Assembly: GCA_017654855.1 (NCBI GenBank) | Contig: CM030334.1 | Coordinates: 930,001-994,000, forward strand | Reading direction: 5' to 3' | Source: Podospora anserina | Taxonomy: Eukaryota | Length of the DNA: 64,000 nucleotides | Made by a program: the position numbers and the translations under genes | Part shown: positions 36,000 to 41,641 of the stretch, one piece after another | Layout of the letters: every line of letters begins with the position of its first letter | How positions within the stretch are numbered: the first letter of the stretch is position 1 | The notes under the pieces: generated by a model | The model's input: the letters and a program-made list of their open reading frames with translations, nothing else | Told to the model about the DNA's origin: nothing | The model's database searches: none

Positions 36000-36699
36000 C
36001 TGGTGCAAATGTACGACGGAGCTGGATCGACAGGATGGATAGTTCACGTGGATTATGTCAACACCTGACGTTATCATCTGTTGAGCCCAAACACGAGAGT
36101 AATCACGTGGTGGTTGGTGAAAGAACCAATATCTAGCTTAGTCCATGCTCAATACCGTGTTACCTTTGCTCCCGCATGCGGCTCTTACATGACCTTTGGT
36201 CTGGGGTAGTCACAAGGCAGTTTCGCCGGTGTCCTTTGCGCTGTCGCTCGAAACCAAGGGTTCAGGAAGAGCCAGATGCTAAATGTGGCATCATGGCACC
36301 GACATCGCTGTGTTTATGCTTTCAAGCGGCAACTTGCCTACCTGGTATACATGGAAACATTAATTTACACTGATACGCATCTCATAAGCAGGAGCCGGGC
36401 GATTTAAGTCACAAGGTCATCAGGTCTAACCGTGTCCTCTGCTGTTTCCCAGCAGGTCTCCTCGCACTCATATTTCGTAGTTCTAAAACCGAAACTTGGC
36501 AGGAGATAGTACCTCTGCGCCAAATGTGGACAAATTTCCTGCGGTGTTGAATGCATAGACACCAATGACACCATCTCACTGATCAGCACCTGGTCCGTCG
36601 CTGTTTATTGTACATTACGGTGGACATGGCGATAGAATAATCAAGAAGACCGACGATCTGTCTGGGCCCAATTCCTTTACTGCTGCCGTAATAAGAGAC

Positions 36700-38250
36700 A
36701 TGACACGTTCGGTCGCTCAAGACGGCTTTGTGATTATTTTAGAGCTACAGAATCGCCTCACGAAGCGAGAGGAAAAACTGTTTGTGACGCCGATATACAT
36801 CGGAATGACTGGTGGGAGGTCCATACGCTTAGCACCAATCATGCCCGACAACGAACGGCCAACGGACATCCCTCAAGCGAAAACATTCCTCCAGCTCCTC
36901 ATCAAGATCAAGGATGAGCTAACAGAGAGAAACACGAAGGAGATCAGCCTTTGGATCAAGACCTCCGGAGTGCCAAACATCGTGTCGGGCCTTGAACTTA
37001 CCTTTGCCCGGACCGGACAAATATGCAACGCTGTGGAGGATATTCGCAGAGGAGAAAAGCTGTTCACGCATCACGTCCGGATGGTCGACAAGGACGAGAT
37101 TATGGCCGCTTGGAATAGGGTCGTGTCCCTGGTTCAAGGGTATCGCTCTCTTCATCAACTTCAACCGGGATTCAACAAGCCGCACCAGACTGGCCATTTC
37201 TTAAAAGAGCTGGTCAAGGACACCGAAGACGTTTTTGGGCTTCTTGAGAGATACATTTTGACTGGCCCTGCATTGGAGGAAGGAGAGGCATTGGAGGCGA
37301 TGATTAGCGATGAGACCTTCCAAGCTCTCGGCCTAACAGGACCACTGCAACTGGTCAAGATCGATCGTCAAGATATCTCTCTGGGAGCAACCACCATGGC
37401 TTACAGTGGCACGGCCATCCAAGAGAAGATTTACGGCCCTTACCTGGATCCTAGGGATATTCCGGTCGTTTAAAAACGAATCAGCGTCCTAGCCAACATG
37501 TTGAAGGCCGTTGAGTCTCAAGACTTCCGTGCGCTAAGGTGCATTGGGTGGTTTCCCGAGCCCTTGGAGCATTGTTACATTCTCAACTTTGAAGTACCGC
37601 CTGGCATCGAGGACCAGAAATATGTGACATTGCAGCACGTCATCCACAAGATGAAAGGCCCCGACCGGCCATCCCTGGACGAGAGACTAGGTTTGGCTTT
37701 GGCGCTCGCCAAGGCAGTAGAAAATTGGCATCTCGTCGGTTGGCTTCATCAGGGGATCAGCAGCTTCAACATCATCTTCTTCCATAGGCCAGGAACACGC
37801 AGGATTGACCACGCAAAACCATACTTGCACTGCTTCGAGTTCGCATGACCTGGATCAGATACCTCAATAGGGCGAGCAGTGGACTCTATTGAATTCAATG
37901 CCTATCGACACCCTGATCGCCAAGGGACTGTAGAACGTGGTCATCTCGCCAAACATGACATTTATTCCCTTGGCGTGGTATTGCTCGAGATCGGTCTATG
38001 GCAGAGTGCTCTGGATGTTGTGCGGAAACTGCCTAGCAAATTCTCCGGGTTGGAAGCCCAATCCTATCTCGTGAAGCAATGCAACGAGAGACTCGCATAT
38101 TTCGTTGGAGAGTCGTACCAAGATGTTGTAGCAACTTGTTTGACGTCGAGCTACGAAGTTGAATTCGATGACACCACCCGCTCGTGATCAGCCAAGTCAT
38201 TTCACGAAAAGGTCGTCATGAAGCTGAGCATGGGCATTCAGCCCCTGTAA
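36700..38250 (+). pseudogene. Helical N-terminal (possibly HeLo-like) + degenerate protein-kinase-like domain gene, 517 codons with three in-frame stops
   Basis: ORFs 36700, 37498 and 37879 share one frame, separated by TAA 37471, TGA 37846 and TGA 38185. Motifs FRALRCIGW, PSLDER..LA..LA, H.VGWLHQGISSFNIIFF, PYLHCFEFA[R]P, YRHPDRQG and DIYSLGVVLLEIGLW are typical of the fungal HeLo-associated kinase-like family. Confidence 0.85.
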
Positions 38251-38251
38251 T

Positions 38252-38958
38252 TCAGGAGATCGAGCAACAGCATTCGTCACCCCCCTTCGTCGTTGTTGTC
38301 AACGCTACAAGGACCGCGGCATAGCTATCGAGAAGCCGTTAGCAAGATTGTCCATCTAGGCGCAGCAAAGCACTTACCTGGCTCCCGAGGCAAATCTGTC
38401 AACAGTCCTGGTTGTTGTGAAGAACGAAGCAACCACAAGGAACATGATTGCGGAAAATATGCTCGCCAGCACACGGCCTGCGGTTGATATTATCGATGGG
38501 ATGAAGGTGGTTGGGATGAGGATCACCAATGTCACGGCGACCACTGCGAGGATGCGGCTAAAACGCCGGAGGTGTGGTCCGAGGAGAAGAACATTGCTGT
38601 CGGCTGTGATCTTGTAACGCTGTGTTTTTAGACGAGGGAAGAACTGGGATCGGACGTCAGCTCTGACATTCACCCTTGCCCTATCAGCTGCAGATAATAC
38701 TCATACCCTCCCTGCCAGCCGATCCAACCAGTACGTGCATTCTTCCACGAAGACCTCACTGTACGCCAAAGCCCTGTCCACAGGACCGGCAAGGCTGCCT
38801 ATGTCCTCATCCATCTCAAGATAATCGGTCTCCTTCCGGCTGATACTGGTCTTGATGCCCAGCCCACAGACCACTCCAAAAGCCTTACGCCTGTTAGCAC
38901 CTTTTAACACTGCCTCTGGACCAGAATCCTTCAGGCCCACGGCCAGACCCGAAGAATT
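38252..38958 (-). CDS. DUF6594-like membrane protein (5' end missing or unresolved); exons ~38958-38707, 38643-38378, 38324-38252
   Basis: Two canonical introns (38706-38644, 38377-38325) join ...ETDYLEMDEDIGSLA... to a three-helix hydrophobic C-terminus ending RTVDRFASGASYAAVLVAL, resembling the DUF6594 signature (E.FAATAAYAAVLVVF). Confidence 0.7.
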
Positions 38959-39133
38959 CTAGATCGACCGATCAGACTTTGCACCGCCGCAACCGAGTCA
39001 GCTACTTGCTTCTACCTAGCTTATTACACAACTTCGGAGATAGCACGGCAGCGAAAATGCTGTACGCAGACGACGAGCAGCATTACCGTCCCCGAATAGA
39101 TTTCTATGTCGAGGTAGGAAACCCGTTGCAGCG

Positions 39134-39397
39134 ATGCTTCCACAACATTCTCCAGATTCCTTTGTACAACAACTCATTATCTCAACAACGGCGCTGACAT
39201 CTTGAAATCAGGGCAAATTTCGCGTCAACGAACAGGTATACGTAACCTCTGACGACGGCCGCAGTCTGCTCGGTTCATACACGGTGGCCCGGGTGGTCGA
39301 AGGCAGCAATCCAAAGAAATACGAGCTCGAACATGACGATAGAACAAGCGTGGAGGGAGGAAGAGAGTATAATGAGGATCAATTGGAATTTGCTTGA
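39134..39397 (+). CDS. Small (~65-70 aa) beta-rich, SH3/Tudor-like protein absent from the ORF track; main exon 39212-39397
   Basis: Branch GCTGAC (~39193) and CAG acceptor (39211), then 61 open codons GKFRVNEQVYVTSDDGRSLLGSYTVARVVEGSNPKKYELEHDDRTSVEGGREYNEDQLEFA*. First exon uncertain (ATG 39134 with a weak donor, or ATG 39106 out of phase). Confidence 0.6.
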
Positions 39398-39554
39398 ATG
39401 CCAAAAAAAAAAAGATACAAAAGGAAGATGCGGTTGTGAAACACGGCCGGCGCGTCTTGAACGGCACCGAGAGAGCCTCACAGGACAATTGCTGATATTA
39501 TGTATGGTATACCGTAATGACCCGACAAATCCCCAACCTGCATGCTTTCATCCC

Positions 39555-40865
39555 TCACCCCCCAGCCCTCCCCCTCCAAGTAAAATGCCCCCTCGGATCC
39601 CTCCCCAACTCCCTCATAGCCTTCACATCCCCATTTCCCTCCCCAAACTCCCTCACCACCGCCTCCTCCGCCAACTTGGCATACCTGACGGCATTCTTCG
39701 CATCCCCCAACATATTATAATTCAACGCCACCAACGTCAACCCTCCCGCAATCTTACTCTCCAACCTCTCCTCCTGATACAACCTCACCAACCTCTCCAA
39801 CAACTTCCTATCCACCTTATCTGTAAACCCGCTCAGTTTCCCCTCAATCTTTTTGATCTCCTCCAAATTCCTATCCGACTTTTTAATCTCCTTCGCGCTC
39901 CCCGCACAAACAGCACAAGAGCAGTCAAACCCCCAAGCATGAAACGCCCTCATCTTCCGGTTTTCCGTCATGTCCATTTGATCGAGATAAGAAATTGTCA
40001 GTTCTTCATCCGGCTTCACCTCTCGGACAACGGTGGTGACGTGCTGCAGGGTCTTCGGGTTGATTTGAAAAACGACATTGGGGCGGCAGTCGTGGTTGAA
40101 CCTGCTGACCTCAGGCCAGTTGCCGTAGTGGTGGCCGCCCTCGGGGGCTTTGGTGCTGAGGTCCATTTGGAACGAGTTGGTCTGGATGATGGAGTGGATC
40201 TGATCTCCCGAAAAGTGCGCCATTTGTTCTTGGAAGCGTTTCCGAAGGGGTTCGGGGAGGAGGTCAACGGCTGCGGAGAGCAACGGGGCTTGGGCCGAAG
40301 CAGGGATTTGGTCGAAGAAGGTCCGGTGGACAATGAGGGCAGGGTAGAGGGACATGACGGTGGTTCCTGGGGAAAGCTTCTCGTTTGCCACCAAGCCTAA
40401 TCCCTTCCCTGGAATGGCCGCCTCGCGGTATGGTAGGGGAGTGGGATCGTATTCATCCACATGTGGAATAAGATCAGGGGGCGACTTTTTGTGAAGAGCC
40501 TGGAGGCGTTGGATATTGCGGGCAGTGGTGATGGCTACCATGCCACGTCCGTGAGCGAACCTTGGGTTGTGGAAGACGCAATACTGGTCGACGCAGTGGT
40601 TGGTCGACTCAAATTCAGGCGACGCTGGTCGAAAGGCAAAGGGTGGCGGATGCGGTGGTTCCAAGGTCACATCTGAGCTGGAATACCTGGCCTCACCGCC
40701 TGTCAAAGCGGGACAGATGTACTCGCGTAGATGGATGACCGTCTTCGGGTCAATGATGTCTGGGGAAGGTTTGCCGATGCACACGTCTGCAAAGGACAAT
40801 CGTGGGATGAGTTGCTGGACAGCTGCTGCGCCTGATGCGAGTGATAGTAGGTGAATGGCCCACAT
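39555..40865 (-). CDS. SET-domain protein with predicted N-terminal signal peptide and helical C-terminus, 436 aa
   Basis: IPGKGLGLVA, SRFNHDCRPN, EELTISYLD, WGFDCSCAVC post-SET motif. The N-terminus MWAIHLLSLASGAAA is hydrophobic with an AxA site. Confidence 0.9.
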   Translation of the reverse strand: MWAIHLLSLASGAAAVQQLIPRLSFADVCIGKPSPDIIDPKTVIHLREYICPALTGGEARYSSSDVTLEPPHPPPFAFRPASPEFESTNHCVDQYCVFHNPRFAHGRGMVAITTARNIQRLQALHKKSPPDLIPHVDEYDPTPLPYREAAIPGKGLGLVANEKLSPGTTVMSLYPALIVHRTFFDQIPASAQAPLLSAAVDLLPEPLRKRFQEQMAHFSGDQIHSIIQTNSFQMDLSTKAPEGGHHYGNWPEVSRFNHDCRPNVVFQINPKTLQHVTTVVREVKPDEELTISYLDQMDMTENRKMRAFHAWGFDCSCAVCAGSAKEIKKSDRNLEEIKKIEGKLSGFTDKVDRKLLERLVRLYQEERLESKIAGGLTLVALNYNMLGDAKNAVRYAKLAEEAVVREFGEGNGDVKAMRELGRDPRGHFTWRGRAGG

Positions 40866-41641
40866 TGTGGCTGAATCTTGGTGAAGATGATGATGAACAA
40901 GGTAAGGGCAATCTCAGCTTTTGTCCATGGTGTCGTTCGAAGCCAGTGTCTGTTTCATGTTTCATGTTGGCTGAAACGGTTGGCATTCAGGGGTTGAGAT
41001 GCCAAGACGCCTCTCTATCCCAATCTTACCCACTGAAGGCGCTGTGGGGCGCTTGGTTTTGGGGGCCAAAGCGTGCAGAATAGGGGTCCAGCAGTGATGT
41101 CATGCTGAGCTTGAGCAAAAGAGTGGTTGAAGACATGCCGATGGTTTATGGGAGTGGTTTAGGTCCTCCGCTCGTGACAGTCCGGAATGCTGCGCCCTTT
41201 CAATGTCGAAGAAACCAGGAACTCAGGAATGCCGCCACCACCAGCCCCTGATATTCCCGAAATAGAATGAGATGTATCGCTCGCGTGTTTGTGGCTTGAT
41301 AGATGTAGACGGACAATCTTCCCCGGCCCAATGCACCGGGAGGTGGCTCGGGAGATCCCCTTCGTCCCGCATCCATCCCTGAGAAGCGGTTCGAGATTGA
41401 CCCAGAGCACCTGAGTCCCCGTCCCGGCATTCCACACCAACCGGTTATTGTACACGCGATATCACAGCTGGGAATGTCCGGAATTTAGAGCTCAGCCGTA
41501 CTCATTCGATCGTCGACGACTAAATTGCTCTTAAGGACAGGATGCTATCCGCCCAAGGTTGCTTAGCTTCGCCCCTTCGTTGCTGTCAGTTCTGCCCAGC
41601 GCAATAACCATATCGTGAGTCATCCGATCTACACTCTCATC

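Follow-up and report, generated by a model that had tools for sequence, protein, structure and literature searches.

We found that the 64,000-nucleotide stretch of Podospora anserina DNA analysed here (hereafter, the window) carries a spliced gene for an 80-residue microprotein, which almost certainly represents a real gene family and very probably belongs to a module of linked genes, together with a caspase-pseudokinase and, as our data support, a DUF6594 membrane protein. To judge from its sequence, the copy of this module in the present genome is probably a decaying relic, with the microprotein decaying too.

Structure of the microprotein gene

The gene lies on the plus strand. Its first exon (39057..39113, 57 nt) comprises an ATG plus 18 codons and encodes the Arg-Pro motif of the family within a tail that is predicted to be flexible. 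A phase-0 intron of 98 nt follows (39114..39211, plus strand), beginning with GTAGGA and ending with a branch-point-like GCTGAC at 39193-39198 and the acceptor CAG at 39209-39211. The second exon (39212..39397, plus strand) contributes 61 codons plus TGA and encodes a predicted barrel of the SH3/Tudor type in which three conserved columns are changed, giving a product of 80 aa (19 + 61). The original prediction had described a 61-codon terminal exon, free of stops, behind an acceptor and a branch point; these elements are present in the sequence at agreeing coordinates, and the frame is stop-free over its 61 codons. The start codon proposed at the time, ATG 39106, has to be abandoned: it yields an exon of 8 nt whose reading frame does not match that of the 61-codon exon, and we therefore prefer the in-frame ATG at 39057. 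The donor lies 9 codons after a conserved arginine, as it does in 11 of 13 related metagenome loci; one other locus has it at 10 codons, and in one no intron was found. A donor at 39108 is also in frame, yet falls 7 codons past the arginine, as against 9 in those 11/13 loci, and was rejected. Exon 2 used as a query gave one match in the genome (a 36-Mb assembly of 9 contigs), and the 61-codon exon matched 0 Pfam families.

The microprotein in related fungi

For the window, the closest protein relatives belong to Cercophora samala, at 80-90% identity, and to Triangularia verruculosa, which points to a Sordariales saprotroph. The C. samala homologue, P0002, is the only close one and, at 80 aa, is as long as the window product, with 90% identity in exon 2 and 13/19 identical residues in exon 1. 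An exhaustive protein search at E<=0.001 returned 26 matches: besides P0002, there were 20 proteins with lengths of 54-108 aa, and five long ones that we judged to be spurious; the search for homologues called for at the outset thus yields 21 small relatives. Named members occur in Sordariomycetes, Eurotiomycetes, Leotiomycetes, Dothideomycetes and lichen fungi. Among relatives having a residue at the motif, the arginine is found in 14/14 and the proline in 13/15. Estimates of dN/dS, made between relatives rather than on the window copy, fell at 0.02-0.24 for the barrel exon in 5/7 pairs (two were saturated), which shows purifying selection in the relatives. As the small relatives, the common intron position and the low dN/dS all exceed chance, the family is real with near certainty.

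A small barrel of the Tudor and SH3-like class

An AlphaFold2 model built from 22 sequences comprises five strands with a mean pLDDT of 75, residues 1-20 scoring about 51. In Foldseek and VIA-align searches, Tudor and chromo-barrel domains ranked first, though weakly (best Foldseek E 0.047, best Z 7.5); their rows aligned over 51-63 residues with Z 6.9-7.5, rmsd 2-4 Å and 11-19% identity. These scores sit within the range of common arrangements and, for a predicted model, indicate the fold class and not the family. With Foldseek there was no match at E<=0.001, no canonical SH3 domain occurred among the fold rows listed, and 0/28 members matched Tudor or SH3 Pfam families at E<=1. The family profile matched Bacillus YdhK at E 0.005. 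Aromatic residues that might contribute to a cage for methylated Lys or Arg are conserved at positions 22, 29, 42 and 56 in 28-32 of 33 relatives. A search of the ESM Atlas with the exon brought up small proteins without names (0.90-0.91) and R67 DHFR (0.89), scores too low for recognition and retained as a lead only.

The SH3/Tudor-like barrel of five strands that had been read from the strand pattern is therefore borne out by the model and the fold searches at the level of fold class. It resembles Tudor, chromo-barrel and SH3-like small barrels (PHF19, 53BP1, LBR; YdhK) in its five-stranded architecture, but is 11-19% identical to them and has no Pfam family at the cut-off. As modelled, the microprotein is an SH3-like barrel; inside that class of folds, its sequence family is new.

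The partner is a caspase-pseudokinase

The neighbour, described originally as a dead kinase-like gene, is a pseudogene on the plus strand (36520..38250) that is 80% identical to the intact 716-aa C. samala protein P0004. It is dead as claimed, with five in-frame stops (36556, 36580, 37471, 37846 and 38185), a frameshift near 36640-36660 and two deletions, which remove the first ~68 residues and residues ~121-183, the caspase Cys motif included. The kinase-like assignment stands for one part of the protein, yet folds and catalytic motifs point to more than a kinase: a C14-like caspase, a helical linker and a pseudokinase (DUF7580). The model of the N-terminal region has a caspase fold (VIA-align to metacaspase 4: Z 17.4, rmsd 3.3, 209 aligned, residues 28-247), and that of the C-terminal region a kinase fold (BRAF, Z 19.6; MLKL pseudokinase, Z 17.4). 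On the caspase fold, a His-Cys dyad is conserved: the histidine occurs in 25/43 rows (17 gaps, 1 Gln) and so in 25/26 having a residue there, and the cysteine in 35/43 (8 gaps), or 35/35, the window copy being without the Cys region. In the kinase loop, another residue stands in place of the catalytic Asp in 43/43 rows. The helical middle (residues ~270-423) entered the fold search as part of the whole model. Set against MLKL, the C-terminal pseudokinase is present, whereas the N-terminal four-helix/HeLo domain is absent, with a caspase fold instead. From the models and the alignment, we assign the neighbour to a family of caspase-pseudokinases.

Changes along the window lineage number 60 in the pseudogene, as against 29 in C. 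samala (P 0.001). We found no other copy of the caspase-pseudokinase clade in this genome, where the other matches cover one domain only. In a DNA run, X11, no difference was listed at the stop codons of the pseudogene; the window and X11 differ at 37206, 37831 and 38529, all inside the two broken genes, with none listed in the microprotein. The difference at 37831 affects the codon of an invariant glycine and suggests either ongoing drift or an error in one of the sequences.

A DUF6594 remnant lies between the two genes

On the minus strand, 38380..38934 holds the remnant of a DUF6594 membrane-protein gene that covers profile positions ~92-231 and is missing its first coding exon. Its intron donors are at 38706 and 38377, and its last exon, a short one, lies below 38325. 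The piece has two hydrophobic segments, and relatives have 2-3 in 7/7 C-terminal pieces; the structure Atlas gave no named look-alike for a DUF6594 piece. Between the remnant and the barrel exon there are 278 nt; in relatives, the distance to the DUF6594 start alone is 734-1118 nt. By this comparison of spacing, the window appears to have lost ~0.8 kb, and with it most of the upstream region that the microprotein and DUF6594 share. DUF6594 is a multi-copy family here, matching the genome 20 times in varied surroundings; around four copies that we inspected, there was no match to the caspase-pseudokinase or the microprotein. Some 1.3 kb away from one DUF6594 copy of this genome, we observed an ORF with a caspase-like Asp-Cys-Cys motif (L085:1352-2732, minus strand) that has no Pfam match and a weak profile score; it may be a second pairing of a protease with DUF6594.

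Linkage of the three genes

In 7/7 genomes where both were seen, the accessions of the microprotein and the caspase-pseudokinase are 1-2 numbers apart. These genomes (C. samala, three Aspergillus species, two Xylariaceae and Apiospora hydei) represent about four independent lineages, and the one-gene gap between accessions in C. samala, Xylaria and Apiospora fits a DUF6594 gene in the middle. For seven further named genomes with the microprotein, there was no partner among the 120 matches listed.

A metagenome scan with the partner as bait, to which loci holding the microprotein alone are invisible, gave 80 loci out of 150 confirmed, near-copies included. In a tree built by a quick method, leaving out 7 identical kinase rows, 4 short rows and L001, 19 of the 80 loci form one group (SH-aLRT 97). 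Within this clade, the microprotein lies tail-to-tail with the partner in all 17 loci that have DNA past the gene end, with a gap of 36-93 nt and in one case 404 nt; beside the partner in the other 61 loci, 52 of which have >=300 nt downstream and 26 >=2500 nt, it was found in none. The functional tie to the kinase-like neighbour that had been proposed for the microprotein gains support from this linkage (17/17 clade loci against 0/61 others), which makes membership of a module very probable.

Divergently oriented to the microprotein, DUF6594 occurs in 11/17 clade loci and in 0/61 others, supporting its place in the set as a third gene. Three of the six clade loci lacking it have <800 nt of flank, L012 has 1168 nt, and L015 and L016, identical copies, are without it in 7.8 kb. 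The window departs from this order: its microprotein-DUF6594 block is inverted, placing DUF6594 between the other two genes, whereas in the 11 loci it lies beyond the microprotein. The SET, FAD-oxidase and DUF4360 neighbours found in the window had no match in 18 clade loci (SET by tblastn), and gasdermin families were found neither in 86 ORFs beyond the microprotein nor in 22 chosen neighbouring ORFs. Two loci deserve separate description. At L015:10296-15228, the module is without DUF6594 and has a weakly scoring microprotein (28 bits); close to it is a fragment of RNase H that may stem from a transposon insertion. L017:1128-3541 is a second decaying copy of the module, with the C-terminal pseudokinase half only, a microprotein match spread over two frames and an ankyrin ORF.

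Kinase-ankyrin genes and HeLo pseudokinases

A second kinase or ankyrin ORF occurs near the partner in 8/19 clade loci (5/5 of those with long flanks) and in 32/61 others. Among these nearby kinases, 30 of the 32 inspected keep HxDxKxxN, and ankyrin repeats often come after the kinase. Tests of 42 non-clade loci revealed HeLo in 19. A kinase that looks catalytically intact, often with an ankyrin ORF behind it, stands beside both HeLo-type and caspase-type DUF7580 genes (L003, L008, L010, L011, L015 and L021; 32 non-clade loci, e.g. L023, L051 and L062). We regard these neighbours as a candidate fungal RIPK-MLKL pair, for which our literature search found no description. The microprotein and DUF6594 come in when the caspase instead of HeLo is the predicted effector. 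For the kinase-ankyrin gene, the window gave no match, and two queries found no close match in this genome. Elsewhere in the genome, we noted an open frame of 645 codons with HeLo plus a DUF7580 kinase-like domain (L087:3658-5592, minus strand; G000:C8 near 2082500), with no microprotein match beside it, and a caspase-like domain, related in type, that lies upstream of matches to homeodomain and rhodanese-like sequences (L086:241-3260, minus strand; G000:C8 near 2409900), likewise with no microprotein match nearby.

A proposed pathway and its alternatives

We propose a necroptosis-like module that would end in proteolysis, with the microprotein as a small regulatory subunit, and give this reading about an even chance. 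An intact kinase with ankyrin repeats would sense a signal and phosphorylate the pseudokinase domain, as RIPK3 does MLKL. This switch would free the N-terminal caspase, placed where related pseudokinases often bear a HeLo pore domain, and the caspase would then cut the co-inherited DUF6594 membrane protein, leading to membrane damage and cell death. The 80-aa barrel would be a latch or adaptor that binds either DUF6594 or the caspase-pseudokinase, a role that we consider evenly balanced between right and wrong. Proline directly after arginine usually blocks cleavage, and we speculate that the invariant Arg-Pro in the flexible tail could serve as a non-cleavable pseudo-substrate. We infer every biochemical step of this scheme from gene content and predicted folds. 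That the module kills cells in defence is the likelier case; only tentatively do we suggest the complete chain, which would unite the logic of necroptosis with that of pyroptosis in one cluster and in which a kinase-ankyrin sensor acts through a pseudokinase switch and a caspase on DUF6594 as a new class of executioner, with the Tudor-like microprotein as a dedicated inhibitor.

The same arrangement could be read with the microprotein as a substrate of the caspase: its tail would be clipped, and the freed barrel would activate or de-repress DUF6594, making it a relay and messenger, no brake. The invariant arginine in a flexible tail favours such a relay, as does the way in which the divergent microprotein and DUF6594 genes flip together as a block; however, that arginine is followed by proline in 13/15 relatives, and L015 and L016 keep a weakly scoring microprotein without any DUF6594, and we hold the relay unlikely. 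It is rather unlikely, too, that the three genes are co-inherited and cooperate for signalling or development instead of cell death or defence. The 20 DUF6594 matches in this genome, four of them inspected and found without a caspase-pseudokinase or microprotein nearby, would suit such a function; patchy spread over four fungal classes and lichen fungi, repeated decay (in the window and at L017) and the presence of HeLo, a known killing domain, on sister pseudokinases argue against it. Tudor and chromo-barrel domains as top fold matches raise the question of a methyl-lysine reader paired with the SET-domain gene next to it (39555-40913, minus strand), which abuts the 3' end of the microprotein gene, in the manner of het-V of P. 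anserina, for which the available part of PMC9262711 describes a pair of HET-Va methyltransferase and HET-Vb HeLo-TUDOR. The SET protein, though, had no tblastn match in 18 clade loci and 0/28 microprotein members matched Tudor Pfam at E<=1, which makes such a pairing very improbable. The SET gene itself is convergent with the microprotein gene, and putative RNA contigs in X1 and X4 cover it.

A last alternative concerns the window copy, which the original prediction took for an antidote or adaptor outliving its toxin; selection on an antidote in this genome after the death of the toxin is, in our assessment, improbable. In its favour, the frame is open, the splice signals and start are intact, and low-depth putative RNA contigs cover 38912-39088 and 39114-39264 (locus depth 2.8-6.5). 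Window-specific changes are also sparser in the microprotein (4/58 sites) than in the pseudogene (60/525), a difference that is not significant (P 0.38). The open frame is nevertheless no evidence of selection, because at the stop density of the neighbour the probability of no stop in 61 codons is 0.59-0.71. Furthermore, 3/18 conserved columns are changed in the window microprotein (D26E, P41S and G63R, C. samala numbering) and none in C. samala, small numbers whose share is no lower than in the dead neighbour (7/173, against 2 in C. samala); in both genes, the changes of the window stand to those of C. samala as 2:1. The greater part of the upstream region seems to be deleted, the genome yielded no further copy of the partner clade, and at L017, which also has a truncated partner, the match to the microprotein is spread over two frames. 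The claim of an antidote kept by selection accordingly finds no support in these comparisons, and the splice junction that was to be sought was absent: contigs from three putative RNA runs, consulted along with the DNA run X11, gave no joint in 3/3. One 151-nt contig (39114-39264, depth 2.8) starts at the first base of the intron and crosses the acceptor unspliced; contig ends are not reliable as true ends, and the contig could represent an intermediate of splicing or have arisen by chance. A further putative RNA contig, 39364-39535, may be the 3' end of the SET gene. The interval 36348-38783 had no cover in 3/3 putative RNA runs and was not used as evidence. A decaying relic thus probably describes the window copy, while the regulatory role proposed above concerns the family.

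Relation to known systems

Fungal cell-death pathways organised in clusters of 2-3 genes, and HELL-pseudokinase proteins, have been described (the available part of PMC12881547). The proposed module shares with RIPK3-MLKL and the fungal HeLo/HELL-pseudokinases of that source the fusion of an effector to a pseudokinase, the intact kinase beside many loci and the HeLo-bearing sisters. It differs in that its predicted effector is a caspase, not a four-helix/HeLo domain, and in that the microprotein and DUF6594 occur only with the caspase clade; the same part of PMC12881547 names such fusions and mentions no linked kinase-ankyrin gene, DUF6594 or Tudor-like partner. The protease-gasdermin clusters of fungi (het-Q; a CHAT or S8 protease plus gasdermin; PMC12881547, in the part available) are similar in that a cysteine protease, sometimes in a kinase-like fusion, is clustered with a candidate membrane-damaging gene. 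In the module, by contrast, the candidate executioner would be DUF6594, with 2-3 hydrophobic segments, the protease is C14/metacaspase-like and a third, small gene is obligate. With het-V of P. anserina (PMC9262711, in the part available), the likeness is a Tudor-like barrel in a fungal cell-death setting, but the barrel of the module forms a protein of its own, 80 aa long and linked to a caspase-pseudokinase, with no co-inherited methyltransferase. No description of the module was found in the literature searched, outside which lay subscription journals and supplements; DUF6594 and DUF7580 returned no paper, and the available parts of PMC7849911, PMC5613156 and PMC10197012 added nothing on it. 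The parts are of known kinds, and their combination appears to be new.

These observations tie together a microprotein family without a Pfam entry, DUF6594 and a caspase-bearing branch of DUF7580. If the proposed pathway is true, fungi would possess a caspase pathway that is switched by a kinase, executed by a protein other than gasdermin and controlled by a small regulator dedicated to it, and the pairing of kinase-ankyrin genes with HeLo-pseudokinases would be a widespread fungal counterpart of RIPK3-MLKL. The linked kinases are candidate upstream kinases for fungal MLKL-like proteins and so bear on how far necroptosis is conserved in fungi, an open question (PMC12881547, section 18). The C. 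samala set (KAK0670321-KAK0670323) looks intact and makes the module testable, and the value of the window copy, a poor choice for experiments, lies mainly in pointing to the family.
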